64,000 nucleotides of DNA, taken from positions 9,885-73,884 of the forward strand of contig CANQST010000002.1 of assembly GCA_947626595.1 (NCBI GenBank), written 5' to 3'. The translations under genes were made by a program, and so were the position numbers. Of the stretch, positions 7,402 through 38,450 are shown piece after piece. The stretch is from an uncultured Bacilli bacterium. GTDB taxonomy: Bacteria; Bacillota_I; Bacilli_A; RF39; UBA660. The notes under the pieces were generated by a model that did not search any database, was not told the origin of the DNA, and worked only from the letters and a program-made list of their open reading frames with translations. Each line of letters starts with the position of its first letter. Position 1 is the stretch's first letter.

Positions 7402-7431
7402 AATGTTGTAATATTTCATTACAACATTTTT
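7402..7431. terminator. bidirectional terminator
   Basis: ATGTTGTAAT-atttc-ATTACAACAT hairpin followed by TTTT. Confidence 0.55.
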
Positions 7432-8701
7432 ATACTTTTAGAGAACCTATTGGTACAACGTATATTCCATCTTCTCTTTGATATGCATATTCGCCTTTTG
7501 CTGTTAGTATCATTAGAAAAGTTGGATTATTCATTTTTTTAGTATCTATTTTGTCTTTTAATTTTAATAAGTTTTCAGCAGCTTCATTTATTAATTTATC
7601 GCCACCTAGTTTAATTTCAATTAAACCATATTTTCCATCTCTTAAGTGAATAACGGCATCACATTCTAAATCCAAAGCATCTTTGTAGTGATAGACATTA
7701 CCATTTATGGCTTCAGCATAAACTCTTAAATCTCTTATACATAGTGTTTCAAAGATTAGACCAAAAGTGTTTAAATCATTTATTAAATCGTTAGGTCCAA
7801 TTCCTAGTGTTGCCGTTGCGATGGATGGATCAACGAAGTATCTTGTTTCTGATGTTCTTATTGCGGTTTTACTTCTTAGGTTAGGGTTCCAAGCTGGGGC
7901 ATCTTCAATGACAAATAATTTTTTAAGGGCATTTATGTAGGACAATACTGTATCAGCATCTAAAGAAAATAAGTCGTTATTTATCATATCTTTTCTTATT
8001 GTTTCAGTAGAGGCTTGAGTTCCGGTATTTCTGGCATAACTTTTCATTAAATTTTTAACTCGTTCAGGGTTTCTTGTTGTATTATCTACATTTGATGCAT
8101 CTGATTTTATAATACCATAACAATAATCGAATGGTTCTTCTAAAGCAATATCTTTTTCTAGAAAAATACTTCTTGGCCAACCACCTCTACAACAAAGATA
8201 TGCAATATCTTCTAGTGATAGGTTGCTGGTACCTTTTATTTTTGCTTTGTTTTCAAATAAATCAGTAAGACTTACTGTACCAGTTGACTCACCAGACTCA
8301 TATAAACTCATTGGTCTCATAGTTAACCAAGCAAAACGGCCAGTTCCGGTATGTGTCACTTCGTCCATATTGCCTGGAACTGAAGAACCTGTTAATATGA
8401 ATTGCCCTTCTTTTCCACGGTGGTCTACTTCAAATCTTACGGCATCCCATAATTTGGTTGCGATTTGCCACTCGTCAATAAGTCTTGGTGTTTCTCCCTC
8501 TAATAAAATAGAAGGATTTAAATCAGCTAGTATCAGGTTTTGCTCTTTATCTTCAGGCTTACTCATATAAAGAATACTTTTAGAAATTTGTTCAGCTGTT
8601 GTTGTTTTGCCACACCATTTTGGTCCTTGGATTAAAACAGCTCCTTTTCCTTTTAATTTTTTTTCTAATAAACTATCGATAATTCTCTTTCTATATTCCA
8701 T
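7430..8701 (-). CDS. AAA+ ATPase, DUF4143-type (ATP-binding protein)
   Basis: Walker A GPKWCGKTT. PMSLYESGESTG and FVDPSIA are motifs shared with the paralog at 37200. RBS AAGGAGG precedes ATG (complement of 8699-8701). The track ORF begins 51 nt further upstream. Confidence 0.7.
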   Translation of the reverse strand: MEYRKRIIDSLLEKKLKGKGAVLIQGPKWCGKTTTAEQISKSILYMSKPEDKEQNLILADLNPSILLEGETPRLIDEWQIATKLWDAVRFEVDHRGKEGQFILTGSSVPGNMDEVTHTGTGRFAWLTMRPMSLYESGESTGTVSLTDLFENKAKIKGTSNLSLEDIAYLCCRGGWPRSIFLEKDIALEEPFDYCYGIIKSDASNVDNTTRNPERVKNLMKSYARNTGTQASTETIRKDMINNDLFSLDADTVLSYINALKKLFVIEDAPAWNPNLRSKTAIRTSETRYFVDPSIATATLGIGPNDLINDLNTFGLIFETLCIRDLRVYAEAINGNVYHYKDALDLECDAVIHLRDGKYGLIEIKLGGDKLINEAAENLLKLKDKIDTKKMNNPTFLMILTAKGEYAYQREDGIYVVPIGSLKV

Positions 8702-8758
8702 ATAAATGCCTCCTTTTGTTAGAATTATACCATTAATATACATATAAATCAATATATT

Positions 8759-8850
8759 TTCGGTTATTTGTGGAAAAATCGTTCGGTTATTTGTAGAAAT
8801 TTCATTCGGTGATTTGTAGAAAAATTATTCGGTTATTTGTAAATTTTCTA
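8759..8850. repeat. four direct repeats with exact 23-bp phasing (TTCGGTTATTTGTAGAAA core) in the divergent intergenic region
   Basis: Copies start at 8759, 8782, 8805 and 8828. Confidence 0.8.
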
Positions 8851-15938: not shown

Positions 15939-16382
15939 ATGGATAAGTTGTCAATAAGTTATAGTGTAGGAAAAGATAAGCCCCATTTAGCGAAATATGC
16001 GAATTGTGATGTAGGAAAGCTAAGTGATTTAAAGATACCTAATGAAGTTAAGGTGGCTTATCTATCGGTTACGCATTATAATGGGCATACTATTAGGAAT
16101 ATTGATACTTATATTTATATAGTTGGTAAAGTAGAGGATTGTCGTAATGTTTTAGGAGATAAGGGTAATTATAGATTGCTGAATACTAAGGAGTTTATCG
16201 ATATCTGTTTAGAAAATAATGGCAAAATGGTAGTCTGTGATGGAGAAGATAGTAAGAACGATGTCTTTCCTATGACAGAGTTTACTAGATGCTTTTCAAC
16301 TAGTGAGGAATTAAGTAATGGAGTAGTAGAATTTACTAAGAAGTTTTTAGAAGATAAGGGAAAGGTATATTTAAAGAGTTAA
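15939..16382 (+). CDS. hypothetical protein
   Basis: 147-aa ORF. Its start lies 2 nt after the preceding stop. Confidence 0.5.
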   Translation: MDKLSISYSVGKDKPHLAKYANCDVGKLSDLKIPNEVKVAYLSVTHYNGHTIRNIDTYIYIVGKVEDCRNVLGDKGNYRLLNTKEFIDICLENNGKMVVCDGEDSKNDVFPMTEFTRCFSTSEELSNGVVEFTKKFLEDKGKVYLKS

Positions 16383-18115
16383 ATGCTTTTCCTTTTTTTA
16401 TAATCTCTGTAGAATTCTCTGCAGGAATGTAGGTGATTGATGTATCTTTATTTTCAGCAACAGATACCATTTTCCCCAAGTGGGGAAAATGGTCTAATAC
16501 GTTGATATTACTACAAATGACAAGAATGCTTTTGACTTTATATCTTTATAAATTAAGGATTTTATTTAAAAATTTTTTAGTTGTTTTATAGATTTGTTTT
16601 ATGATCTCTGCAGAGATATTGTAGAGTTTTGTGCAGTATTTATGAGCATTTGATACAGCCTATCAAATACCATTTTCCCCACTTGGGGAAAATGGTCTAA
16701 TACGTTGGTATTATTACAAATGATAAGAGTGTTTTTGACTTTATGACTTTATAAATTAAGGATTTTATTTAGAAATTTTTTAGTTGTTTTATCAATCTGT
16801 TTTATAATCTCTGCAGAGATGCTGCAGAGTTTTGTGCAGGAATGTAAGCAGTTGATGTATCTTTATTTTCAGCACCAAATACCATTTTTCCGACGTCGGA
16901 AAAATGGTCTAATACGTTGATATTACTACAAATAATAAGAATGCTTTTAACTTTATATCTTTATAAATTAAGAACTATATTTAAGTCCTTTTACTGATTT
17001 AATTTATAGTCTCTGCAGAATTTTCTACAGAAAAATGGAAAACTCTGCAGAGATATTGTAGAGTTTTGAACAGTATTTATGAGCATTTGATGCAGCCTAT
17101 CAAATACCATTTTTCCCAAGTGGGAAAAATGGTCTAATACGTTGATATTACTACAAATTCAGAAATATTCTTGACTTTATATTTTTATGAATTATAAAGC
17201 CTTATTTAAGTTCTTTTATCAATTTGATTTATAGTCTCTACAGAATTCTCTGCAGAGATGCTGCAGAATTTTGTGCAGGAATGTAGGTATTTGATGTATT
17301 TTTATTTTTAGCAACAGATACCATTTTGCCGACGTCGGAAAAATGGTCTAATGCGTTGATATTACTACAAATTCAGAAATATTCTTGATTTTATATTTTT
17401 ATAAATTATAAAGCCTTATTTAAGTTTTTTTATCAATTTTATTTATAATTTCTGCAGAATTCTCTGCAAAGATGCTGCAGAATTTTGTGCAGGAATGTAG
17501 GTATTTGATGTATCTTTATTTTTAGAAGCAAATACCATTTTCCCCACTTGGGGAAAATGGTCTAATATGTTGATATTACTAAAAATAATAAGAATGCTTT
17601 TTACTTTATATCTTTATGAATTAAGAACCATATTTAAGGTCTTTTACTACTTTAATTTATAGTTTCTGCAGAAGAACTGTTAAACTCTGTAGAGATACTG
17701 CAAAGTTTTGTGCGGTAATATAAGTATTTGATGTATCTTTATTTTTAGAAGTAAATACCATTTTTCCGACGTCGGAAAAATGGTCTAATACATTGATATT
17801 ACTACAAATAATAAGAATGCTTTTGACTTTATATCTTTATAAATTAAGGATTTTTATTTATAAATTTTTTAATTGTTTTATAGAGTTGTTTTATGATTTT
17901 TGCATAATTCTCTGCAAAAAATGGAAAACTCTGCAGAGATACTGCAGAGCTTTGTGCAGTAATGTAGGTATTTGATGTATCTTTATTTTAGAAATAAATA
18001 CCATTTTTCCGACGTCGGCAAAATGGTCTAATACGTTGATATTACTATAAATTCAAGAATATTATTTGGTTTATACTTTTATAAATTATGAAAATTTCTT
18101 TAAGACTTTTTTAGT
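16383..18115. repeat. tandem array of 8 repeat units of roughly 203-233 bp, each containing a 26-bp perfect palindrome
   Basis: Palindromes start at 16466, 16669, 16881, 17106, 17320, 17534, 17767 and 18000. Every unit also contains TCTAATACGTTGATATTACTACAAAT, TTGACTTTATATCTTTATAAATTA-like and CTCTGCAGAG....CTGCAGAG segments. Confidence 0.9.
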
Positions 18116-18943
18116 TTAATTTTTAATCATAACATTTTTTTCTTTTTCTAATTCTTTAAGACTTTTTTTAGGTGTAGGTAAATTTTCAGGCATTGTTCCA
18201 CCATTTTTATTAATAACTTCTCTAATGTTTTTTCCGATATTGTAATGTGCCGCATTTGCTTTACTTTCTGTTTTAATATTTTCTCTTTTTAATTTTGACT
18301 CTGTTTGTGTAATTCGAAATAAATTTGCAGCTAGTTCTTCACTACCCATATTATCTAAAATATCTTCTCTATATCTTAGTTCTTTTCTTTTAGCAATATC
18401 GTCTGCTGTTTCGCCATTATATAAACCTTTATAACCGAAATTATGAAATTTATCAAAATTTTTAACACCTGAGTTTTTTGCTGTTTGATTTAATGAATAA
18501 TTACCTTTTTTAGTTAATTTTCTTTGATAAAGTCTCTTTTCATCTTCAGAAAGTTCACTATATTCTTTTTCGATTATTTCTTGTTTCCTAGTTTGTACTG
18601 CAAAATATGTTTGAGCTAAAGCAATGACTTGTTTTCTATTATCTCCATTTTGAGCAATTAAATAGCAAGCATATCTTGATAATTTGTAATCTTTTTGTTT
18701 TCTTTTGGAATTTGAACCTATAGATACTATTTTGTCAACGTCGATAAAATGGTCATCAATGTTATTATTGCTTAAATTACAAGTGTTTTTTGCTTTATCG
18801 ATAACACCTATAAAGTTTTTCCATTTTGAGTACTCAAGCGCTATCATTAACTCACGTGCAAGCCAGTATTCTTGATTATATTCATCAAGATGTTTGATAT
18901 TTTCAAAATTTGTTTTGCTGTATTCTTTTAGCGTATCTTCCAT
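18116..18943 (-). CDS. dinD: DNA-damage-inducible protein D homolog
   Basis: Strong recollected similarity to E. coli DinD along the whole length: EYWLAREL, LSRYACYLIAQNGD, QTYFAVQTRKQE, DEKRLYQRKL, HNFGYKGLYNGE, MGSEELAANLFRITQTESKLKRE, GGTMPENLPTP. RBS AAGGAG precedes ATG (complement of 18941-43), giving 275 aa against 274 aa for E. coli DinD. Confidence 0.85.
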   Translation of the reverse strand: MEDTLKEYSKTNFENIKHLDEYNQEYWLARELMIALEYSKWKNFIGVIDKAKNTCNLSNNNIDDHFIDVDKIVSIGSNSKRKQKDYKLSRYACYLIAQNGDNRKQVIALAQTYFAVQTRKQEIIEKEYSELSEDEKRLYQRKLTKKGNYSLNQTAKNSGVKNFDKFHNFGYKGLYNGETADDIAKRKELRYREDILDNMGSEELAANLFRITQTESKLKRENIKTESKANAAHYNIGKNIREVINKNGGTMPENLPTPKKSLKELEKEKNVMIKN

Positions 18944-19420
18944 TTTTACATCTCCTTTTTTTGTTTTTTTCTTTCTTATTAATATTGTACCAAATAATTC
19001 TTGATTATGCAAATGACTTTAGTTACTCATTTGTTCCTGTTGCTTTTTCTTTATTTATTACATTATTTTGTAATTTATGTAGAATTATCTATAGAAAAAC
19101 TGAAAAAAACTCTGCAGAGATACTGTAGAGTTTTGTGCAATAATATAAGTATTTGATGTATCTTTATTTTTAAAAGCAAATACCATTTTTCCGACGTCGG
19201 AAAAATGGTCCAATGCATTGATATTACTACAAATAGTAAGAATGCTTTTGACTTTATATCTTTATAAGTTTATAGTCTCTGAAGAAAAACTGTTAAACTT
19301 TGCAGAGATACTGCAAAGTTCTGTGCAGGAATGTAAGTACTTGATGTAGCCTATCAAATACCATTTTTCCCACTTGGGAAAAATGGTCTAATACGTTGAT
19401 ATTATTAGATATAATTAATT
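18944..19420. repeat. continuation of the tandem array (2 more units) on the far side of dinD
   Basis: Palindromes at 19182 and 19370. 19060-19180 aligns with the CTCTGCAGAG....TTTGATGTATCTTTATTTT part of the unit. Confidence 0.85.
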
Positions 19421-19582
19421 ATTGAAACTTGTTATTTCTGTTAGAGTGCTATAGCTAATTAACTGTAAAACATTATGTAAAATAAATTTAGCTTTATTGA
19501 AAAATAATGAAAATTTTGTTATATTCTAGATAGAAGAAAAACTACACATGGTTGTAGTTTTTCAAGTGTCTTGGAGGAGTAT

Positions 19583-22931: not shown

Positions 22932-25559
22932 GTGGGAAATTTGAAAAGACTAAATTTAATTTTACCGATGGTTATAATTGGGATAATTTTTTCTATGAGT
23001 ATTGGATTTTCCGCATTAAATAAGGGTTTGAGCATATCTGGAGAAGTAAATTATAGACCAGAAAATGACATTAGAATTACAAAAATCACTCCAGAAAAAG
23101 TGGAAAATACGACGTTAGAATACTTCGATTTTTCTAAAAAAGAGGTAAAATTGGCCTTTAAAAAAAATTTAAATTTATGTGTAAAGTTTACACTCGAAAT
23201 CACTAATTTTAGCAATTCTGAGATGGGAATTTTAAAAATTAAGGGGTTAGATGGGGGTGTAATTGATGGTTATACCCTTGGTGAAAAGTTAGTTGGAGAG
23301 GATGGAAATAGTAAAGCTGGGATGATTAAGAAATTTAGTATTACTTATAATTCTAGTGAAGAAGATGTTAAAAGTTTACTATTAAAGTTTGATTTTGAGC
23401 CTGTATATAAGATTAATTATGAAGGGTTTGATGATACTAGTAGTTTTAAAAAAGAGATATTAAGAAATGATAAGTTAGTTCAAAACTTTGGAGATAATCC
23501 TCCTAAGAAAGTAGAAGTTACTATGAATGATGAAGTAATAACACCTAATTATAGTAATGGAGTACTTACAATAGATAATGTAACTGGTGATATAAAGATA
23601 AAGCCTGTGTTCTATGATGAAAGTGGAGCAAATGAACCAGTACTTAGTGATAACATGATACCAGTATATTATGATGAGAATAATAAAGTATGGAAGAAAG
23701 CTGATAAATATAATAGAAATAATAATTGGTGTGATTATAATAATCAAAAGTGGTGTAATGCAGTTACGGTAAAGAATGTTGTAAGAGATTTATCAGGAAA
23801 TGGTAATGATGGAGAAATACATGGAGCAGTTATAGAAAATGGTGAGGCATATTTTGATGGTAAAGATGATTATATAGATACAGGTATAAAAGGCCATGAA
23901 TTCAATCAAATTACTTACATAGCTAAGTTTACTTTGCTTTCATATCAAAATATAAATCAAAGTATTATAGCAAATACTGATGGTAGTGGGAGTGCAATTT
24001 ATATTCCTGGGAAAAATAATAAACTTTTTTTTACATTATATGATGGTAGTAAAAATGGTTATAATTACATTTATGGTGATACTATAATTGAGTTAAATAA
24101 AGAATATTTAGTAGTTGCGGTGTATGATGGTAAAAATATGAAAATATTTATTGATGGAGAGCAAGTTGCAGAAGGTGCAGGCCCAGTCAACTTTAAGCAA
24201 TCTCTTTCTAAAACACTATTAGGAGGTGATCCATTAGGTGAGTCTGATGCTATTGGCGAGCCTTCAAATATTAAAATAAATGATGTATTAATATTTGATA
24301 AAGCATTAACTTTAGAAGAAATAAAAACTCATTATAGTAATAAAGTTACTTTAGGAGAAACTAAACCATTGATTTATTATGATTTTGAAGAGACAAATAG
24401 AGAAATATATAGAAATGGTAATATCGGTACAACAATACCAATGGAAGAAATAAATACCATGTGGGTATGGATTCCAAGATATTCATATACAATAAAACAA
24501 CCATATGGTAAAGCAAGCGCTGATAATCAAAGCCCCTCACAAGAATTACCTGGAGAAATAGACGTTAAGTTTATTCCAGCAAGTCAAAATGATAGTGAAG
24601 GATTGGCACAATATACAGGTAGTGATACAAGTGGATGGTTTACCCCACCTGGATTTAAATTTGGAGATAAAGATTTATCAGGAATATGGATAGGAAAGTT
24701 TGAAACCGGTTATTTGGGTGCAAGTACAGAAAATGAAGCCCAACATGATACACAAGAGTCAAATAAGGTTATTATTAAGCCAGATGTGATAAGTTGGCTT
24801 GGAATAAGAGTTTCAACAATAGAATTGGTTTCTATGGGAATTATAAAAGAAAAAAATCCTTTTGGATTTAATCAAAGCATATATGATAGTCATGCAATAA
24901 AAAATAGTGAATGGGCTTTGATGTCATATTTAACTCAAAGTAGATATGGAAAATATGGAAATACTTTATATGTGGGAGATAACAAACAAACTTACATGAA
25001 TAATTATATTGGAAATCTCTGTGGATGTTCAGCTGGGATACCACATACTAATGAGGCTTCGTTATGTGCTTATAGATATAATGATTTAACAAATATTAGT
25101 TCTGGAGCTGGGTATGTTGGAGCAGGAGCGTCAACAACGGGCAATATTTATGGGATTTACGATGTCAATGGCGGATCTTTAGAAAGTGTAATGGGTGTTT
25201 ATGATAATCCTGAAAGAAGAAGTGGTTATTCAACATCAGATAATTCGGGTTATACAGGATTACTAGACGATGGTAAAATATTTGAAGGTAGAGAATGGCA
25301 AGATGATAAATACTATGATTTTTATAGCACAGATAATTGGATGACTGCATGTGATGGAAACCCATGTAAAGGTCATGCTTTGAATGAAACGAATGCATGG
25401 TACAATAATCCAGTGAATATATTATGGGGTAGATATCCATGGAATTGGAGAAGCGGTTATTGGAAGGATAAAAATGGTGGAGTTTTCATGCATAATAATT
25501 GGGATGGCAGTGCTAATGCTGAAGCTTCATTTCGCATCGTCTTAACTCCAAATAATTAA
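22932..25559 (+). CDS. surface paralog-family protein with inserted LamG/ConA-like lectin domain and C-terminal FGE/C-type-lectin-fold-like domain (N-type III, C-type A)
   Basis: LSGNGNDGEIHGAV...YFDGKDDYID...VVAVYDGKNMKIFIDGEQV...INDVLIFDKALTLEEI is a Laminin_G_3 pattern. The C-domain has the MWVWIPRYSYTIK ... FRIVLTPNN blocks. Start is GTG 22932 or TTG 22941, the latter following RBS AGGTGG. Confidence 0.8.
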   Translation: MGNLKRLNLILPMVIIGIIFSMSIGFSALNKGLSISGEVNYRPENDIRITKITPEKVENTTLEYFDFSKKEVKLAFKKNLNLCVKFTLEITNFSNSEMGILKIKGLDGGVIDGYTLGEKLVGEDGNSKAGMIKKFSITYNSSEEDVKSLLLKFDFEPVYKINYEGFDDTSSFKKEILRNDKLVQNFGDNPPKKVEVTMNDEVITPNYSNGVLTIDNVTGDIKIKPVFYDESGANEPVLSDNMIPVYYDENNKVWKKADKYNRNNNWCDYNNQKWCNAVTVKNVVRDLSGNGNDGEIHGAVIENGEAYFDGKDDYIDTGIKGHEFNQITYIAKFTLLSYQNINQSIIANTDGSGSAIYIPGKNNKLFFTLYDGSKNGYNYIYGDTIIELNKEYLVVAVYDGKNMKIFIDGEQVAEGAGPVNFKQSLSKTLLGGDPLGESDAIGEPSNIKINDVLIFDKALTLEEIKTHYSNKVTLGETKPLIYYDFEETNREIYRNGNIGTTIPMEEINTMWVWIPRYSYTIKQPYGKASADNQSPSQELPGEIDVKFIPASQNDSEGLAQYTGSDTSGWFTPPGFKFGDKDLSGIWIGKFETGYLGASTENEAQHDTQESNKVIIKPDVISWLGIRVSTIELVSMGIIKEKNPFGFNQSIYDSHAIKNSEWALMSYLTQSRYGKYGNTLYVGDNKQTYMNNYIGNLCGCSAGIPHTNEASLCAYRYNDLTNISSGAGYVGAGASTTGNIYGIYDVNGGSLESVMGVYDNPERRSGYSTSDNSGYTGLLDDGKIFEGREWQDDKYYDFYSTDNWMTACDGNPCKGHALNETNAWYNNPVNILWGRYPWNWRSGYWKDKNGGVFMHNNWDGSANAEASFRIVLTPNN

Positions 25560-25627
25560 TTATTTAAACAATTAAGATGGTATTAATAAAATTTATATGT
25601 AAATAATAATTGTAGGTGAAGTGTATT

Positions 25628-28228
25628 ATGAATAGTAGAAAAACTAAATTAATTATAATAGTTGCCTTGTGTTTGGTAGTAATATGTTTAACAGTGGGTT
25701 ATGCAATTCTTTCTGCTAACCTTAATATAAGTGGTCAGGCCTCAGTTAATGGTGGTAGATGGGATGTTGTGTTCTTAAAGAATGATGCTAAAGTAGTAGG
25801 AGAAGGTAGAGCTAAGTGTAACCTTGGTACTATAGAAAATTCTTCTATTAAGGATTTAACTGTTTCTTTAGAAGAAGCAGGTGATAGTTGTACTTTTACT
25901 ATTCCAATACAAAATACGGGTACTGTAGAAGCTTATTTAACAGATGTTGTTGGTAAAGATAATTCTTTAACTTTTAATTCTACATCAGTATCAGATATAG
26001 AAAAAATAAAACCTTTAGTTACATATGAAGTAAAGTATGGAGATATGCAGATAAATAGTCAAACAGATTTTAGTAAGATACCAGTATTAAAAGCAGATGC
26101 TAAGGAGACAGTAACATTAAAAGCTATGATAAATGCAGATGATAGTATTGGAAAAACTAATCCTATAACTATAGGAGGATTTGATAGAACTTTTGTGTTT
26201 AATTCTAATTCATTAGAAGAAGGTTCAACAGATAGTGTAGTACCATTAGGAAGTCCAAATAAGCCAGTATTAAATGGAGATATGATACCAGTATATTATG
26301 AGAAAACAAGTGATACAACAGGAAATTGGGTTAAAGCTGATACAACGAATAGTGATAATAACTGGTATGATTATGATAGTCAAAAGTGGGCTAATGCTGT
26401 AACAGTAAAGAATACTGTAAAAGATTTGTCAGGTAACAATAATGATGGAGTAGTTCATGGAGCAGTAGTAGGAAATGGTGAAGCTAGTTTTGATGGAGAA
26501 GACGATTATATAGATGTTGGGTTAGCTGGTCATGATTTTAGGCAAATTACGTATGTGGTGAAATTTACTTTACATCATTATATTTCCGATCATCATCAGA
26601 TTATTATTGGTAATACTGAAAATGCTGGCGCTTCAATTCAGTTGAGTTCAGATGATAACAAAAGGCTTCTATTTATGGTGCTTGATAATAATACAGGCAC
26701 TTATCTCAAAGTTAGCAGCGATGCCAGTTTAATTGATTTAGAAAAAGAGTATATTGTTGTTGGCACTTGTGATGGTGGTTCAATGAAATTATATCTTAAT
26801 GGTACTTTGGTGGCTGAAAATAAAAAATCTATTAATATAAGAAATTCGATTTCTAGAGTATTGATAGGAGCAGATCCTTCTGATAATTTTGGCTTTGATT
26901 CACCATCAAATATTTCAGTAAATGATGGCTTAGTATTTGATAAGTCATTAACAGAAGAAGAAATAAAGCAACACTATAGTAATGAAGTTACTTTAGGAGA
27001 AACAAAGCCATTAGTCTATTACAATTTTGAAGATGCTAATAGAGAATATTATAAAGAAGCAAAAGCTGGAACAACAATATCAATGGATGATATAAACACA
27101 ATGTGGGTATGGATACCAAGATACTCATATACAATTAAACAACCTTATGGTAAAGCAAGTTCTGAGAATGAAAATCCAACTCAAGCTTTACCAGGAGAAA
27201 TAGATGTTAAGTTTATACCATCAACTATAACAGAAACTGGTTCAGCTCAGTATACAGAAGCTAGTCCTAGAAATTGGAGAACGAACGCTGCCTTTGATTT
27301 TGATAATAAAAAGCGAGCAGGAATATGGGTGGCAAAGTTTGAGCCTACAGGTACTTTGGGTTCTGCTTGTGTAAATGATACTTGTGATATAAATACTGTA
27401 ACGATAAAACCAAGTACTGCTTCAATAAGATTTCAAAAGGTAAGTAGTTTCTTCTATATGGCAAGAAGTATGCAAAAAGTTGATAATCCATATGGTTTTA
27501 GTTCTACAAGTGGTGATTTACACATGATTAAAAATGACGAATGGGGAGCAGTAGCTTATCTATCTCAAAGTAAGTATGGAAAATATGGTAATTCAGCTTA
27601 TACTGGAGCTAATAAAGAAATTTATCAAAATAAATCAAGTGATTATATAACTGGAAATAGTAATGGTACACCAAGCATTAGTACAATAAATACACAGTAT
27701 ACATATAATAATCTAACAAATTTAGGAACTGGTGCTGGTCAAGCAGGACCGGGAGCAAGTACAACAGGAACAATATATGGAGTATACGATATGTCGGGTG
27801 GTGCTTATGAATATGTAATGGCAGCAATAGCATATGATAATGATGATTTAGTTCCAATGTCAGGTAATAATAGCACAGGTACTAGTAATTCTGGATTTAA
27901 TGGAAAGTTTAATGATGGTACTGATTATAATGCTGGCATACCTTTTCCGAATATTAAGTATTATACTATGTATAAAACGCAAAATCCAAATTCTAGTGAT
28001 TTTACTAATTCTTTATCAGCGTGTGGTAATAGCGTTTGCTATGGATGTGCTTTGTCAGAAACAAAATCATGGTATGATGATGTTGCCCTTTTTGTATCTA
28101 GTTACTATCCATGGGTTCAGCGTGGTGGTTATTATGGTGATAAACTAGATGCTGGTATATTCGATGCTGGTTATGGTCATGGAGGTTCTTATAATTCTTA
28201 TTCCTGTCGATTAGCGTTAGTATCATAA
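25628..28228 (+). CDS. surface paralog-family protein with LamG-like insert and C-terminal FGE/C-type-lectin-fold-like domain (N-type IV, C-type B)
   Basis: LSGNNNDGVVHGAV...SFDGEDDYIDVG...YIVVGTCDGGSMKLYLNGTLV...VNDGLVFDKSLTEEEI. The C-domain is of type B (KPSTASIRFQKVSSFFYMARSMQKVDNPYGF..., end ...CRLALVS). RBS AGGTGA precedes ATG 25628. Confidence 0.8.
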   Translation: MNSRKTKLIIIVALCLVVICLTVGYAILSANLNISGQASVNGGRWDVVFLKNDAKVVGEGRAKCNLGTIENSSIKDLTVSLEEAGDSCTFTIPIQNTGTVEAYLTDVVGKDNSLTFNSTSVSDIEKIKPLVTYEVKYGDMQINSQTDFSKIPVLKADAKETVTLKAMINADDSIGKTNPITIGGFDRTFVFNSNSLEEGSTDSVVPLGSPNKPVLNGDMIPVYYEKTSDTTGNWVKADTTNSDNNWYDYDSQKWANAVTVKNTVKDLSGNNNDGVVHGAVVGNGEASFDGEDDYIDVGLAGHDFRQITYVVKFTLHHYISDHHQIIIGNTENAGASIQLSSDDNKRLLFMVLDNNTGTYLKVSSDASLIDLEKEYIVVGTCDGGSMKLYLNGTLVAENKKSINIRNSISRVLIGADPSDNFGFDSPSNISVNDGLVFDKSLTEEEIKQHYSNEVTLGETKPLVYYNFEDANREYYKEAKAGTTISMDDINTMWVWIPRYSYTIKQPYGKASSENENPTQALPGEIDVKFIPSTITETGSAQYTEASPRNWRTNAAFDFDNKKRAGIWVAKFEPTGTLGSACVNDTCDINTVTIKPSTASIRFQKVSSFFYMARSMQKVDNPYGFSSTSGDLHMIKNDEWGAVAYLSQSKYGKYGNSAYTGANKEIYQNKSSDYITGNSNGTPSISTINTQYTYNNLTNLGTGAGQAGPGASTTGTIYGVYDMSGGAYEYVMAAIAYDNDDLVPMSGNNSTGTSNSGFNGKFNDGTDYNAGIPFPNIKYYTMYKTQNPNSSDFTNSLSACGNSVCYGCALSETKSWYDDVALFVSSYYPWVQRGGYYGDKLDAGIFDAGYGHGGSYNSYSCRLALVS

Positions 28229-28266
28229 TGAAATTTTTAATTTTGATAAATGTAGGTGATATATAA

Positions 28267-30255
28267 ATGAATAATAGAAAACAAAAATATATTATAATTG
28301 GTGCATTATGTTTAGTGGTAACTTTACTATCTATAGGTTATGCTGTTTTGTCAGCTAACTTAAGAATTGATGGAACTGCTAAAGTATCAGGTGAGAAATG
28401 GAGTGTTGAGTTTGTAGAAAAACAAGCTAAAACTATTCCAAAAGGAAAAGCTACTTGTGATATAGGTACAATTCAAAATACTTCAGTAACAAACTTATCA
28501 GCTAAAGTAAAAGTACCAGGAGATAGTTGTACATTTACTATACCAGTAGAAAATACTGGAACTTTAGATGCCAGTTTAGTTGATGTAACTAATAGAGGTT
28601 TATCTTTATCATATGATGGTAATCCTGGTGATATAGATATAATAAGTAGTTATATAACTTACGATGTTAGATATGGTAGTACACAAATAAATAATGAAAC
28701 TAATTTTGAAGAAATTGATATTTTAGAACCAGGAGAAAGAGAGACAATAACTTTAAAAGTAGAGTTTAAAGAAGAAGCTACACAAATATCAAATGCAGTT
28801 GTAACAATAACAGGCTTAGATAGAACATTTAATTTTGAAAATAAGTTAGGTTCAAGTAGTACTAGTCCAACACCAGAAACTGTACCAGTTTACCATGATA
28901 CTAGTGGAGCTAATCAACCTGTTTTGAGTGATAATATGATACCAGTAGTATATGACGAAACAAGAAAAGAATGGGTAAAGCAAGATTTAGATAAAAGTTA
29001 TGATTATTCACAACAAGTATGGGCAAATGCTGTAACTGTAGTTGAAGATGGAACACAAACAAGAAGTTATTATAAGAAAGCAAAGGCTGGAACAGTAATA
29101 TCAATGAATGATATAAATACGATGTGGGTATGGATACCAAGATACTCATATACTATTAAGAGTGAAGATGGTGGAGATAACTACTTCGGAAAGGCAAGTT
29201 CTGATAATCTAAATCCATCACAGGCTCTACCAGGAGAGATAGATGTTAAATTTATTCCAGTAAGTGAAAATGATAGTGAAGGCTCAGCTCAATATACAGA
29301 AGGGGAAGCAAGTGGATGGTTTACGCCACCAGGATTTAAGTTTGGAGAGAAAGATTTATCGGGAGTGTGGATGGGAAAGTTTGAAACGGGTAATATAGGG
29401 GATTGCCAAGCGACAACTGGAGATGTAAATAATGGATGTGATTTAGAAACGTTAGTTCCACAAATTAAGCCAAATTTAACAAGTTTGAGGGGTATAAGAG
29501 TATCAACATTGGAATTAGTTTCTATAGGTTTAACTAAAGGTGGAAATATCTATGGTTTTGATAATACATATGATAGTCATGCTTCCAAAAATACAGAATG
29601 GGCATTAATTAGTTATTTAACTCAAAGTAAATATGGAAAGTATGGAAATTATTTATACAAAGGAGAAAATAAACAAGTGTATATGAATAATTATAGTGAA
29701 TATATGACAGGATGTTCTTCTGGAATACCAACAGCTGAAAGTTCAGATAAATGTACTTACGAGTATGACAATTTAACTTCTAATGGAGAAGGTACCGGCT
29801 ATTTGGGAGCGGGTGCTTCAACAACAGGAACAATATATGGGATATATGATGCAAATGGTGGAAGTTGGGAATATGTAATGTCTGTTTTTGCAAATCCAAG
29901 CAAATATTCTGGAAATACGCTAGAGTTAAATTCTGGATATAAAGGACTATTAACAGATGAAATTGAGTTTAGCGATAATGCTCGTTCTTGGTTAAGTGAT
30001 AAGTATTATGATTTTTATGCATCAGATGATGTAAAGACAGCGTGTAATGATACTTTATGCAAAGGTTATGCATTAAATGAGACGTCTGGATGGTATGGTG
30101 ATAGAAAGAATATGGTTCACAATATTTATCCTTGGATGGATCGTGGTGGATACCAACGAAAAAATGATGGGACATCTGGGGTGTTTGCATATATTAATGG
30201 AGAAGGAAGCTCTTCAAATTACCGTTCTTTCCGTATCGTCCTAACCCCACAATAA
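28267..30255 (+). CDS. surface paralog-family protein (N-type I, C-type A)
   Basis: The first ~300 aa are ~95% identical to the 52049 paralog. The C-domain carries the conserved blocks and ends ...FRIVLTPQ. Confidence 0.8.
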   Translation: MNNRKQKYIIIGALCLVVTLLSIGYAVLSANLRIDGTAKVSGEKWSVEFVEKQAKTIPKGKATCDIGTIQNTSVTNLSAKVKVPGDSCTFTIPVENTGTLDASLVDVTNRGLSLSYDGNPGDIDIISSYITYDVRYGSTQINNETNFEEIDILEPGERETITLKVEFKEEATQISNAVVTITGLDRTFNFENKLGSSSTSPTPETVPVYHDTSGANQPVLSDNMIPVVYDETRKEWVKQDLDKSYDYSQQVWANAVTVVEDGTQTRSYYKKAKAGTVISMNDINTMWVWIPRYSYTIKSEDGGDNYFGKASSDNLNPSQALPGEIDVKFIPVSENDSEGSAQYTEGEASGWFTPPGFKFGEKDLSGVWMGKFETGNIGDCQATTGDVNNGCDLETLVPQIKPNLTSLRGIRVSTLELVSIGLTKGGNIYGFDNTYDSHASKNTEWALISYLTQSKYGKYGNYLYKGENKQVYMNNYSEYMTGCSSGIPTAESSDKCTYEYDNLTSNGEGTGYLGAGASTTGTIYGIYDANGGSWEYVMSVFANPSKYSGNTLELNSGYKGLLTDEIEFSDNARSWLSDKYYDFYASDDVKTACNDTLCKGYALNETSGWYGDRKNMVHNIYPWMDRGGYQRKNDGTSGVFAYINGEGSSSNYRSFRIVLTPQ

Positions 30256-30330: not shown

Positions 30331-31029
30331 ATGACATTTAAGTATCGGTATAGGAAACAAATTATTATTGGAGTTATTTTACTTCTTATTGTTTCTTTAG
30401 GAGGCTTTTTTACTTATAAAGAGTTATCTAAAAAGAAAGATAAGGAAGATGATAAGGCTATTGCGAAGTTTATTAAGAAAGAGGATAAGGATAATTCTAA
30501 GGGAAAAGATAAATCTAAAGAAGAAAAGATAATGTATAAAGTGGATATTAAAGGACAAATAAATAATCCTGGTATTTATTCACTAGAGGCTGGTTCTAGG
30601 GTAATTGATGTTATTAATATGGCGGGTGGTCTTACTGAAAATGCTAATACGACAGTAATTAACTTAAGTAAAAAGATAATTGATGAGATGGTTATTATAA
30701 TTTATTCTAATTATGAAGTAGAAAATTTTGAAGCAACTAAGGAAATAGAAAAACAAGTTCAAGAGAAATGTTTAGGTGATACGATTAAGAATGATGCTTG
30801 TATTGAGGATAATACTGATACTTCTAGTGATATTTCTACTTTAATATCTATTAATACGGCAACTAAAGAAGACTTAACTAAATTACCAGGAATAGGTGAA
30901 GCTAAAGCTCTAGATATTATTAAATATAGAGAAGAAAATGGTGATTTTAAAGATATTGAGGAGATTAAAAATGTATCAGGAATAGGAGATAGTTTGTTTG
31001 CTAAAATTAAGGATTACATTACTATCTAA
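30331..31029 (+). CDS. comEA: competence protein ComEA (SLBB + helix-hairpin-helix DNA-binding)
   Basis: C-terminal INTATKEDLTKLPGIGEAKALDIIKYREENGDFKDIEEIKNVSGIG is a tandem HhH. N-terminal TM segment. Confidence 0.8.
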   Translation: MTFKYRYRKQIIIGVILLLIVSLGGFFTYKELSKKKDKEDDKAIAKFIKKEDKDNSKGKDKSKEEKIMYKVDIKGQINNPGIYSLEAGSRVIDVINMAGGLTENANTTVINLSKKIIDEMVIIIYSNYEVENFEATKEIEKQVQEKCLGDTIKNDACIEDNTDTSSDISTLISINTATKEDLTKLPGIGEAKALDIIKYREENGDFKDIEEIKNVSGIGDSLFAKIKDYITI

Positions 31030-33356: not shown

Positions 33357-34634
33357 ATGCGAAGCGTTGGAATTTTAACTTTAGGGTGTAAGGTAAATAC
33401 TTATGAAAGTGAGTATGTAATTAATTTATTAAAAGATGCTGGTTATGTAATAAAAGATTTTCAAGATGTTTGTGATGTTTATATAATTAATACTTGTACA
33501 GTTACTAATACTAGTGATATAAAGTCTAAAAAAATGATTAGAAAAGCAATAAAAATGAACCCACATGCTTGTGTAGTAGCGATGGGATGTTTTATTGAAG
33601 CTAATAAAGATATTGAAATAGAAGGATTAGATATTATTATTGGTAATAAGGATAAATCTTCTATTGTTTCAATATTGGATGAGTATTTTGAAAAGAAGGA
33701 AGCAATAAAGAGATTGTATGACAAGGAATTAAACGAGTTTGAAGATATGTATATTACTGATTTTCCTGGTAGGACAAGGGCTTTTGTAAAAATACAAGAT
33801 GGATGTGAAAACTTTTGCAGTTATTGTATAATTCCTTATGTTAGAGGGAAATGTCGTAGTAAAGATTTTAATAAAGTAATAGAAGAAATAAAGACATTAG
33901 TAAATAATTCTTATCAAGAAATAGTTTTGACTGGTATTCATACAGGTAATTATGGAATTGATTTAGATTGTAGTTTTGCTGATTTATTAAGAGAAATTGT
34001 TAAGATAAAAGGACTTAAAAGATTAAGAATATCTTCTATTGAAATAACTGAATTGACGGATGAGGTTTTAGATATAATAAAAGAAAATAATGTAATTGTA
34101 AATCATTTACATATACCTTTACAATCTGGCAGTGACGAGATATTAAAAGCAATGAATAGAAAATATGATTTAGCTTATTTCTTTGATAAAATTAAAAAGA
34201 TTAGAGAAATTAGAAAAGATATAGCTATTTCAACAGATGTAATTGTAGGATTCCCTGGTGAAAATGAAGAATTATTTCAAAAAAGCCTTGATACATGTAG
34301 AAAATTAGCTTTTAGTAAAATACATGTTTTTCCTTTTAGTGAAAGAAAAAATACTAAGGCTTGTATGTTACCTAATAAGATAGATAATAATACAAAGAAG
34401 GAAAATGCTAGGAGACTTATTTTATTATCAAAAGAGTTGGAAATTGATTATATGAAGAAGTTTTTAAATAAAGAAGTAGAGGTTTTAATTGAAGAAGTAA
34501 AAGATAATGTAAGTATGGGACATACAGGAGAATTTCTTCATGTTAAAATAAATGCTCGGTTAGAAAGAAATACTTTTGTTAAAGTAAAAGTTGTAGATAT
34601 AGAATACCCATATTGTATTGGAGAATTATTATGA
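33357..34634 (+). CDS. mtaB: MiaB-like tRNA methylthiotransferase (MtaB/YqeV family)
   Basis: MTTase N-domain, radical-SAM CENFCSYCIIP, C-terminal TRAM. 425 aa. Confidence 0.65.
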   Translation: MRSVGILTLGCKVNTYESEYVINLLKDAGYVIKDFQDVCDVYIINTCTVTNTSDIKSKKMIRKAIKMNPHACVVAMGCFIEANKDIEIEGLDIIIGNKDKSSIVSILDEYFEKKEAIKRLYDKELNEFEDMYITDFPGRTRAFVKIQDGCENFCSYCIIPYVRGKCRSKDFNKVIEEIKTLVNNSYQEIVLTGIHTGNYGIDLDCSFADLLREIVKIKGLKRLRISSIEITELTDEVLDIIKENNVIVNHLHIPLQSGSDEILKAMNRKYDLAYFFDKIKKIREIRKDIAISTDVIVGFPGENEELFQKSLDTCRKLAFSKIHVFPFSERKNTKACMLPNKIDNNTKKENARRLILLSKELEIDYMKKFLNKEVEVLIEEVKDNVSMGHTGEFLHVKINARLERNTFVKVKVVDIEYPYCIGELL

Positions 34635-37040: not shown

Positions 37041-37132
37041 TTAAAATTTGTATATTAAAAAGCTTAAAAATTGTATATCAAAAGTCTTAAAAAATGTATA
37101 TTAAAATCCTTAAAATTTGTATATTGATATTG
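37041..37132. repeat. four direct repeats with exact 23-bp phasing (TTAAAATTTGTATAT core) upstream of the second DUF4143 ATPase
   Basis: Copies start at 37041, 37064, 37087 and 37110. Confidence 0.8.
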
Positions 37133-37199
37133 AAAAATTACTATAAATATGGTATTATTTTATTGGTGATGATTAGTGAATTTTAATGAAAAGGAATAT

Positions 37200-38450
37200 A
37201 TGCCTAGGTTAATTGATAAAAACATAGATAGATATTTAGAAGTTTTTGGAGCTGTTTCTGTTGAGGGACCAAAATGGTGTGGTAAGACTTGGGCATCTTT
37301 GAGGCACGCTAAAAGTGTTGCTTATTTGGATGATGAAAGTACTAAACAAAGAGCTTTATTAGATTTGGAATTGATTTTAAATGATCAACAACCAGAACTT
37401 ATTGATGAGTGGCATTTAATTCCGGAAATTTGGGATAGAGTTAGAAGAAAGTGTGATTTAGATAGTAAAAAAGGAAAATATATTTTGACTTGTTCTACGC
37501 AACTTGATGATGAAAGAAGAAAACACATTTATCATTCTGGTGCTGGTAGAATTGGTAAACTTAAAATGTATCCTATGAGTTTGTATGAGTCTGGTGAGTC
37601 TACAGGAGATGCATCTTTGATGGATATGTTTAATGGTAAACAAAAAAATAAAAATGTTAAAATTCCTAGTTTAGAAGAAATAGCTAATTTAATAGTAAGA
37701 GGTGGATGGCCTGATAATATTAAAGTTTCTAAAGATAAAATCAATATAATTCCCAAGAGTTATATTGCCTCAGTCCTTGATAAAGATATTGATGATGGTA
37801 AAAAACGTGATAAAGAAAAAATGAATATGCTTATTAAATCACTCGCACGTAATGAGTCTACCATTGTTAGTAATCAGACGTTATTAACTGATATAGGTAC
37901 TTATAATAATAACGAAGAATTAATAGAAAGCAGAGTAACACTAAGTGATTATTTAGATGTTTTAGATAGACTTCACTTTACTGAAAATCAAAGTGCTTAT
38001 AGTGAGAATTATCGTTCAAGAGAAAGACTTGGCAAAACACCTAAAAGACATTTAATAGACCCATCTTTAGCTTGTGCCGCTTTAAATTTAACTAGTGATA
38101 AATTACTTAGTGATTTGAGAACTTTTGGTTTCTTGTTTGAGTCTTTAGTAGAAAGAGATTTAAGAATTTATATAGAATATTTAGATGGAAATATTTATCA
38201 TTTTAGAGATAATGTAAGTGGATTAGAAGTTGATAGTATACTGGAATTTCCGGGAGGAGATTATGCCGCAGTTGAAATAAAGTTAGGTTTTAACGCTATT
38301 GAAGAAGCTAAGGCTAATTTAGTAAAGTTTGCGAGTAATATGACTAAAAAACCTAAATTTATGTGTATTATTACTGGTAATTTTGATGCTGTAGCAAAAG
38401 ATCCAGATACGGGAATATATATTGTTCCTATAACAGCTTTAAAACCATAG
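37200..38450 (+). CDS. AAA+ ATPase, DUF4143-type (paralog of 7430-8701)
   Basis: GPKWCGKTW Walker A. PMSLYESGESTG and IDPSLA are shared with the other copy. Confidence 0.7.
   Translation: MPRLIDKNIDRYLEVFGAVSVEGPKWCGKTWASLRHAKSVAYLDDESTKQRALLDLELILNDQQPELIDEWHLIPEIWDRVRRKCDLDSKKGKYILTCSTQLDDERRKHIYHSGAGRIGKLKMYPMSLYESGESTGDASLMDMFNGKQKNKNVKIPSLEEIANLIVRGGWPDNIKVSKDKINIIPKSYIASVLDKDIDDGKKRDKEKMNMLIKSLARNESTIVSNQTLLTDIGTYNNNEELIESRVTLSDYLDVLDRLHFTENQSAYSENYRSRERLGKTPKRHLIDPSLACAALNLTSDKLLSDLRTFGFLFESLVERDLRIYIEYLDGNIYHFRDNVSGLEVDSILEFPGGDYAAVEIKLGFNAIEEAKANLVKFASNMTKKPKFMCIITGNFDAVAKDPDTGIYIVPITALKP

Follow-up and report, generated by a model that had tools for sequence, protein, structure and literature searches.

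A hairpin conserved within dinD genes recurs in a tandem array around dinD in an uncultured Bacilli bacterium

A 64,000-nucleotide stretch of contig CANQST010000002.1 from an uncultured Bacilli bacterium (hereafter, the window) contains, upstream of helD, a tandem array of hairpin-bearing repeat units within which lies a single gene, dinD, encoding a homologue of DNA damage-inducible protein D. Judged by alignment, the units are themselves derived from dinD, and the palindrome that each of them carries corresponds to a hairpin found inside dinD genes throughout the family, where it covaries and is under nucleotide-level constraint. The array is most likely the gene family's own hairpin segment in multiplied form, and not a cassette system with dinD as its cargo. 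DinD, the product of a long-known SOS gene that is also a common prophage moron, has a role that is still poorly understood. The hairpin and the arrays appear to be undescribed, no description having been found in searches of the dinD literature or of Rfam.

A tandem-repeat search (TRF) identified repeats with a period of 214 nt, in 7.7 copies, at 16407–18089, and a repeat-family search identified an 88-nt core in ten copies within the array. The array consists of two blocks on the minus strand. The left block (16383–18115), which starts directly past the stop codon of a convergent open reading frame (ORF) at 15939–16382, comprises units 1–7 and the promoter-distal part of unit 8, as defined by TRF, repeat families D1–D8 and alignments A1 and A2. 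The right block (19050–19410) comprises the promoter-proximal part of unit 8 together with units 9 and 10, as defined by the repeat search, the unit alignment and comparison with relatives. Each of the ten units contains one perfect palindrome of 28 nt, ACCATTTT-N12-AAAATGGTCYAAT (also written ACCATTTT-N12-AAAATGGT); these start at 16466, 16669, 16881, 17106, 17320, 17534, 17757, 18000, 19182 and 19360, and each extends to 27 nt beyond its start. The copy in unit 8 (18000–18027, minus strand), identified by pattern match and folding, can stand for all of them. All ten matches to the palindrome pattern in the window are confined to this one array, versus none in 100 shuffles. Successive palindromes are separated by 178–243 nt, with the exception of an interval of 1182 nt between the eighth and ninth. 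It is this interval that holds dinD, on the minus strand, and it is the only real gene in the array, in agreement with an earlier note on this DNA.

The units are approximately 77% identical overall, with a nearly invariant core of about 60 nt and middles that diverge into three subtypes. Pairing in the palindrome (hairpin 1) stands at 98% across the units and includes two compensated pairs, and the loop is flipped between units, reading AAGT in units 1 and 4 and ACTT in units 2, 6 and 10. The predicted folds range from −13 to −21 kcal/mol (z −2.7 to −4.5). A second conserved hairpin, CTCTGCAGAG-N5-CTGCAGAG, is 92.5% paired, also with two compensated pairs; the example in unit 7 (17925–17953, plus strand) is followed by TTTTGTG and has a terminator-like shape on the plus strand. 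Small ORFs conserved in the units were considered and rejected: from one unit to the next, frameshifts and indels disrupt the minus-strand ORFs that open at the hairpin ATG (MVFASKNKDTSNTY...), which indicates that the units are non-coding. Rfam 15 contained no family matching the window array, two arrays from other genomes (L020 and L038, described below) or the dinD region of E. coli, the best hits being at chance level (ceN86, E 0.48; mir-2007, E 0.057).

The relationship of the units to dinD is apparent from several comparisons. The repeat search returned an eleventh copy of the core, 70% identical, inside dinD itself at 18720–18783. In blastn searches every unit aligned to codons 49–79 of the resident gene, with 68–70% identity over 72–92 nt and E values down to 3e–8; about 75–90 nt of each unit, the palindrome included, are homologous to codons ~49–79 in gene orientation, and the homology possibly reaches codon 99. 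When DinD was compared with the array by tblastn, SNINVLDHFSDVGKMV aligned against SNNNIDDHFIDVDKIV and SNNNIDDHFIDVDKIVSIGSN with SNINALDHFSDVGKMVSVAKN, similar strings being present in every unit. Each unit also contains a second piece of dinD, some 20 nt matching codons 258–264 plus the 3′ flank. A 17-nt exact direct repeat, TTCTTTAAGACTTTTTT in the plus-strand reading, ties this flank piece to the C-terminal coding sequence: one copy lies in the unit flank just past the dinD stop codon (18096–18112, minus strand) and the other at 18152–18168, in codons 258–264. Both pieces are kept in the order and orientation that they have in the gene. Some dinD genes of other genomes are closer to the units than the resident gene is, with up to 94% identity across 48 nt and up to 81% across 75 nt. 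The 75-nt unit core is 74–79% identical to dinD genes of the SNINVLDHF type versus 63–73% to the resident gene; the unit cores are themselves of that type (like L023, L080 and L050), whereas the resident gene belongs, with its 83%-identical relatives, to the NNNIDDHF type.

These alignments show that the array units are dinD-derived, and not neutral repeat DNA that captured a foreign gene; their origin in dinD had escaped the earlier note. Apart from the two pieces just described, nothing of dinD could be recognised in the units. That the units are complete gene copies with internal deletions was also considered, and rejected, as their middles have no significant similarity to the 5′ untranslated region (UTR) and codons 1–45 or to the last 30 codons.

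The identity of the gene is well supported. The minus-strand ORF at 18116–19012 matches the NCBIfam equivalog model NF008573 (DNA damage-inducible protein D) with 341.5 bits against a curated cut-off of 242 (E 3.7e–102), over profile positions 3–274 of 288 and thus over its full length. A Bro-N domain (Pfam PF02498, E 2.8e–10) is present at the N terminus, and BLASTP gave 50% identity to E. coli K-12 DinD over 258 aa (E 1e–90). The invariant columns of the family are retained (R90 Y91 A92 C93 Y94 L95 and Q111 Y113 F114 A115; alignment A4), the protein carrying both the LSRYACYL and the A-x-x-Q-x-YFA motif. Matches to PDC-S13, a candidate defence family of PADLOC (E 6e–103), and to PHROG 8036 were obtained as well. 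The earlier identification as a DinD homologue thus holds, whereas its end coordinate of 19012, at a TTG, is over-extended by 23 codons. The true start is almost certainly the ATG at 18943, which has GGAG 8 nt upstream and gives 275 aa, as against 274 in E. coli; a protein of 275 aa identical to the window DinD is on record (P0121). The coding sequence so defined occupies 18116–18943 on the minus strand.

Upstream of this ATG are 106 nt of unique DNA (18944–19049, minus strand), assigned by alignment and promoter scan, that have no homologue in the other units. A promoter-like site, TTTGCA-18 nt-(TG)N-TACAAT, lies within it at 19013–18984, as does the GGAG ribosome-binding site (RBS). The suggestion that the promoter and 5′ UTR of dinD are repeat-derived is contradicted by the lack of any counterpart of these 106 nt in other units. 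With its own predicted promoter and RBS, dinD is functional-looking. As had been reported, no LexA (Cheo) box is present: GAAC-N4-GTTC is absent from the whole 64 kb, and no version with up to one mismatch occurs in 18901–19300. LexA control concerns how the E. coli gene is regulated and does not define the DinD protein family. On the other side of the gene, the palindrome at 18000–18027 is the first hairpin past the dinD stop codon, 88 nt away, and, with ATTTATTTCT following it on the minus strand, is probably the dinD terminator. The gene's own copy of the family hairpin, at codons 64–73 (DHFIDVDKIV; 18726–18753, minus strand; family D4, 70% identity), is degraded and has lost its fold (−5 kcal/mol, z 0.12), being no better than shuffles.

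Several further matches to the protein were recorded. In a phmmer search of PDB sequences, DinD residues 63–111 matched the C-terminal region of the TAL effector PthXo1 (3ugm, E 1.4e–8); weak hits to TAL effector repeats were also seen, and IVSIGSNSKRKQ of DinD resembles VAIASNxGGKQ. No single stretch passes alone, and the likeness is probably compositional or spurious. DinD also matches the first ~267 of the 717 positions of PADLOC model PDLC03083 (Specificity_I; E 7.5e–83). That match to a type I specificity subunit model suggests DinD–HsdS fusions, or misjoined models, in type I restriction-modification (R-M) loci. In locus L019, hairpins lie between a RhuM gene and hsdS.

The hairpin is a feature of dinD genes generally. 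A scan for the core motif, with one genome per species, gave 97 loci, and most of the hits were within DinD ORFs, from Bacillota, Bacteroidota, Pseudomonadota, Campylobacterota and one archaeon. Codons 63–73 of these genes read LDHF-x1-x2-x3-x4-KMV, in which the codons for x1 and x4 are reverse complements of each other (R..T, V..N/D, S..G, A..G, P..R/G). To avoid ascertainment bias, viral dinD loci were picked by means of the motifs LSRYACYL and AFAQTYFA, which are unrelated to the hairpin; 496 IMG/VR contigs encode DinD relatives, and 80 of them were kept (L116–L195). Among 43 distinct sequences, 88% of stem positions formed Watson–Crick pairs, compared with 21–39% when the centre was shifted. 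In an alignment of 42 sequences, which included those of E. coli, L112 and the window gene, 90.7% of the 504 stem cells pair, and changes on both sides were observed in nine of the 12 stem pairs (67 cells). The covariation score was 0.396, as against 0.154 in shuffles, none of 500 of which reached the observed value, and at most 0.16 with slid partners. Some dinD genes have arms that are wholly different yet complementary and that encode other amino acids (DEQLVEVNKLS, ECFVDVNKTS, DHFVHVHEMV). The hairpin of E. coli K-12 dinD, GACCAT-T-TCGAGG/CCTCGA-T-ATGGTC, folds at −24 kcal/mol, has an inner stem of its own and occupies the same codons. It is apparent, therefore, that the palindrome of the array is the counterpart of a family-wide, covarying intragenic hairpin that is constrained at the nucleotide level.

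Amplification of the hairpin segment was also found elsewhere. In metagenome contig L203 (G+C 0.41), an array of 102 nt × 5.8 at 99% identity lies ~220 nt downstream of dinD; its units are 90–94% copies of codons ~45–76 of the neighbouring gene plus a linker of ~25 nt, and a perfect in-gene hairpin exists alongside the array. Contig L208 (G+C 0.44) has 108 nt × 5.2 directly upstream of a dinD gene with a degraded hairpin, and contig L207 (G+C 0.33) has three upstream hairpins identical to that in the gene. Hairpins are situated on both sides of dinD in L083, a Bacteroides sp. metagenome-assembled genome (MAG), and in L101. The units in L081 and L066 (uncultured Tenericutes/Bacilli) are 330 nt long and consist of the 5′ UTR and codons 1–99, and a Bacillales MAG (L045) contains several internally deleted dinD copies that include the hairpin region and aa 253–270. 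Two further arrays, 125 nt × 10.3 in Desulfovibrionaceae (L020) and 180 nt × 4.2 in Brumimicrobium (L038), have no dinD within the sequence examined. Since their periods differ, these arrays, which occur in several unrelated lineages, arose independently, and in every case it is the hairpin segment (~60–90 nt) that has been amplified. Six high-scoring segment pairs of partial dinD copies have their end precisely at aa 73, which is the last codon of the hairpin, and four have it at aa 99.

Other features of these loci may be mentioned. In L198 (1314–1560) and L199 (566–836), non-coding copies of the hairpin have grown to perfect or near-perfect palindromes with arms of 20–24 bp; in L199 the coding 5′ flank has its mirror image in the 3′ arm, and it is exactly there that the dinD fragment stops, an arrangement resembling fold-back or template-switch synthesis. 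Three human-gut contigs (L197, L200, L201) carry the same dinD allele, from which aa 74–215 are deleted starting right after the hairpin, and have a second hairpin 222 nt upstream. The cluster of dinD remnants in L045 (274–3474) adjoins a reverse transcriptase of the diversity-generating retroelement (DGR) type, recognised by eye from IGxxxSQ and YMDD motifs; upstream of it is a 595-aa pilin-like protein with a lectin-type C terminus, the probable DGR target, and a YhcG-like nuclease gene (by eye) is inserted between dinD copies. In L081 (858–2896), where the pattern of ORFs suggests that UGA is read as Trp, dinD follows its 330-nt partial copies and lies directly upstream of a RecA-like ORF (by eye), a position that fits the reported action of DinD on RecA. 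In the viral loci inspected, DinD often has an N-terminal extension of ~25 aa (MNDREFEEQL...).

The explanation to which we would give slightly better than even credence is that the array is a by-product: a conserved intragenic hairpin, being a rearrangement hotspot as well, seeded it. The hairpin would be a functional cis-acting nucleic-acid element of dinD and, as a palindrome in DNA, would promote template switching and unequal recombination. Partial copies with an end in the hairpin or close to it would have been made, deleted down and amplified in tandem. Such events would be expected to yield truncated copies, deletions that start at the hairpin, flipped loops, growth of palindromes and tandem amplification. 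Within the array, where the remainder of the unit drifts, selection may keep the palindrome perfect, or quasi-palindrome correction and short-tract conversion may do so.

Certain observations weigh against this explanation. The core is much better conserved than the unit middles, which could mean that the array itself is functional. The middles are unlike the rest of dinD, so that a history of internally deleted gene copies rests on the two short pieces described above. Since the unit cores are slightly closer to the other dinD lineage, the units are unlikely to be simple offspring of the resident gene; the present gene may have been inserted into an older array, and the sequences lean slightly towards its later arrival rather than its being the parent. 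Arrays are, moreover, rare: more than one hairpin-like match was found, using the strict pattern, in only three of the 80 unbiased viral dinD loci. The loci from the genome scan carry an ascertainment bias towards the outer hairpin arms.

It is also possible, though we suggest it only tentatively, that the dinD hairpin (12–14 bp, covarying) is a functional partner, that is, an RNA or DNA ligand of, or an operator for, DinD/Bro-N or a host factor, and that it has been amplified repeatedly into non-coding regulatory or decoy arrays. If true, these would be a previously undescribed class of gene-derived hairpin arrays, acting in cis or in trans, on an SOS and phage-defence gene. The main rival to the by-product explanation, though a rather doubtful one, is that the window array is functional in this sense. 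Its many hairpins, whether in RNA, in extruded DNA or in single-stranded DNA, would be the ligand or operator for some factor by which the in-gene copy is recognised as well. The factor might be the Bro-N domain of DinD or an RNase, and the copies might constitute a decoy, a sponge, an operator array or a set of insulators or terminators; where arrays exist, the in-gene copy would then be free to decay. Consistent with this, the core of ~60 nt is nearly invariant while the middles have diverged into subtypes, compensated changes occur in the hairpin within the window array, and the window and L208 both pair flanking arrays of perfect hairpins with a degraded hairpin in the gene. Independent arrays with different periods have always used the same segment, and each window unit has the second, terminator-shaped conserved hairpin, terminator-like sites numbering 12 where 0.9 were expected. 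Short conversion tracts would, however, explain the high identity near the hairpin equally well, and L203 retains both a perfect in-gene hairpin and an array. Sigma-70-like promoters in the units are at chance level (20 sites versus 20.2 expected), Rfam offers no match, arrays are rare among dinD loci, and the counts of wobble pairs (26 antisense-type versus 11 sense-type, confounded by M→I/T codon changes) pick out neither strand.

The position of dinD within the array bears on a different explanation, that the units are cassettes bounded by recombination sites, integron-like or assembled by accretion of att sites, and that dinD is cargo inserted site-specifically at the hairpins. Part of this was proposed in the earlier note, which likened the gene to cargo in a repeat-bounded cassette replacing about 20 bp inside one unit. 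The nesting itself was confirmed. In an alignment of all units and the gene flanks, 18000–18115 corresponds to the hairpin-proximal part of a unit and 19050–19181 to the rest of that same unit, unit 8, so that dinD and its unique upstream DNA (18116–19049) stand in for some 15–40 bp of the most variable part of the unit. The flanks align better than random sequence: 18050–18115 beat 300 shuffles when compared with the unit middles in seven of eight units (p ≤ 0.007; p = 0.043 for unit 9), and 19105–19191 is 85% identical to the CTCTGCAGAG...GTATTTGATGTATCTTTATTTT block (also CTCTGCAGAG...TTGATGTATCTTTATTTT; family D6, alignment A1). A check for an empty site in related genomes, which the note had proposed, was positive. 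In six loci from relatives with 79–84% identical HelD, only ~120–155 nt separate the upstream ORF from helD, so that the array and dinD together (~16383 to 19455) represent a lineage-specific insertion of ~3.1 kb upstream of helD; the helD promoter region common to the relatives begins at ~19455.

We consider the cassette explanation improbable all the same. In its favour, the 28-bp palindrome is laid out 11-6-11 like a tyrosine-recombinase core, array and gene together form a lineage-specific insertion, and the lineage of the resident dinD differs from that of the unit cores. A hairpin is also found ~460 nt upstream of an integrase gene in viral contig L005, and another beside a Xis-like ORF (by eye; no Pfam match) in viral contig L003. 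The gene, however, was inserted in the interior of a unit and not at a hairpin, the nearest hairpins being 88 nt from the dinD-plus-promoter segment on one side and 133 nt on the other. The closest relatives of the protein (83% identity) are encoded by single genes near Abi_2 and type I R-M genes, with flanks that bear no hairpins. No attC-type R/L boxes were seen by eye, and no recombinase domain (Phage_integrase or other) and no Y1 transposase domain was detected in the window ORFs scanned with Pfam, namely those of at least 150 aa at ~2.4–52 kb, except 30331–31029, 33357–34634 and 37176–38450, plus three near 60–64 kb; twelve ORFs of that size, nine of them at the window ends, fall outside the scan. 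The likeness to a cassette extends to the nesting of dinD in one unit, and breaks down in that the scanned ORFs yielded no recombinase, hairpins do not bound the gene and the units are made of dinD. Several of 14 viral loci inspected have dinD flanked on one side by a cI-like helix-turn-helix repressor and on the other by an integrase or serine recombinase, both recognised by eye in N-terminal sequence. That the hairpins of L005 and L003 are attP or attB sites of dinD-targeting elements was rejected; because prophage dinD normally lies between a cI-like repressor and an integrase or recombinase, hairpins beside int are better read as remnants of dinD in that moron slot.

A last explanation, and a very improbable one, is that the units encode a small RNA, or a repeat RNA like that of type III toxin–antitoxin (TA) systems, whose plus-strand units pair with dinD or bind its product. 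The plus strand of each core is indeed antisense to dinD codons 49–79, and the array lies next to a protein gene in the manner of toxI and toxN. The consensus fold of the units obtained with RNAalifold is more extended on the plus strand than on the minus (−29 versus −22 kcal/mol); in the extended plus-strand stem, each of the five substitutions that fall on the 3′ strand is a transition compatible with pairing, a result for which chance suffices. Complementarity to the resident mRNA is, however, only ~70%, with at most nine contiguous matches, and unit promoters are not above chance. Known type III antitoxin repeats are 34–45 nt long, and units of 102–330 nt are far longer than these. DinD is not known to be an RNase or a toxin, and the window protein had no PADLOC or Pfam match to ToxN, AbiEii or CptN.

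The window is otherwise ordinary chromosome, with glmM, helD, comEC, recD2 and gyrase or topoisomerase IV subunits, genes upstream of glmM having been named by synteny with relatives; almost all genes are on the plus strand and GC skew is strong. A pattern specific to the units had no match in JGI metagenomes, and the Logan contig of the source strain breaks inside unit 9, as would be expected of short-read assembly. Relatives have different large N_methyl (pilin-like) proteins between glmM and helD, which indicates that the whole neighbourhood is variable; in the window, two adjacent large paralogous ORFs (875 and 870 aa) with Laminin_G_3/concanavalin-like domains, followed by a 662-aa ORF with a weak DUF11 hit, occupy 22932–30255. 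An ATPase gene with AAA_14 and DUF4143 domains (7430–8752, minus strand) lies between HD and DHH genes and is absent from relatives such as L109, in which HD and DHH are adjacent; after it, at 8759–8841, are 3.6 copies of the 23-nt repeat TTCGGTTATTTGTAGAAAAATCA. The same ATPase family also flanks the L020 hairpin array and a lone hairpin in L025. Another 23-nt tandem repeat, TTAAAAATTGTATATTAAAAACC × 3.7, at 37041–37125 just upstream of the ORF at 37176–38450, resembles an iterated operator or promoter element.

A hairpin that compensatory change has maintained inside the dinD ORF across phyla, and in E. coli K-12 too, points to a form of control so far unrecognised or to a physical ligand. 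The repeated growth of arrays from one segment would provide an example of structured coding sequence seeding tandem repeats. There is also a warning for annotation: what are taken for 'non-coding repeat arrays' around a gene may consist of sequence from that very gene.

It is instructive to compare the locus with known systems. E. coli DinD (PcsA) is SOS-regulated and is reported to inhibit RecA filaments (Uranga et al. 2011, as cited in PMC4129442). The window protein belongs to the same family, is of the same length and 50% identical, and its gene has the hairpin at the same codons; unlike the E. coli gene, it has no LexA box, lies amid an array of its own fragments upstream of helD, and has a degraded in-gene hairpin. 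Repetitive extragenic palindromic (REP) sequences and bacterial interspersed mosaic elements (BIMEs) of enterobacteria are likewise intergenic, non-coding tandem arrays of palindromes beside gene ends, and can stabilise mRNA 3′ ends or terminate transcription. Here, in contrast, the palindrome has its homologue in a stretch of coding sequence of the neighbouring gene family and is conserved inside ORFs across phyla; the units are of 100–330 nt and in one orientation, the palindrome is found in one array of the 64 kb, and no REP-associated tyrosine transposase was seen (Y1 being absent from the scanned ORFs).

Integron attC arrays also have hairpin-forming sites spaced along a gene-containing array in which some units lack ORFs. 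The present array differs in that no intI was found in the Pfam-scanned ORFs, dinD lies unbounded by sites and shares homology with the units; the palindrome has perfect 12-bp arms without bulges or extrahelical bases and, as read by eye with no dedicated attC model, no GTTRRRY core at its ends. Type III TA (ToxIN-like) loci, in which a terminator separates the short RNA repeats from an endoribonuclease toxin gene downstream, are unlike the window array, whose units of 203–243 nt are found on both sides of the gene and whose protein is of the DinD/Bro-N type. Cis-acting sites inside the gene that they serve are known: lacO2 lies in lacZ, and replication origins lie in pT181 repC and phiX174 gene A. 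The likeness is that a conserved nucleic-acid element overlaps coding sequence and limits codon choice; the difference is that nothing indicates a role of DinD as initiator or repressor. The closest parallels are the arrays of partial dinD in L081, L066, L045, L203 and L208, in which the hairpin segment has likewise been amplified in gene orientation beside an intact dinD, with breakpoints at aa ~73 and ~99. Their periods are 330 nt (L081 and L066), 102 nt (L203) and 108 nt (L208) versus 214 nt in the window, and the units of L081 and L066 are still ORF-like for the N-terminal Bro-N part, whereas those of the window are fully non-coding.

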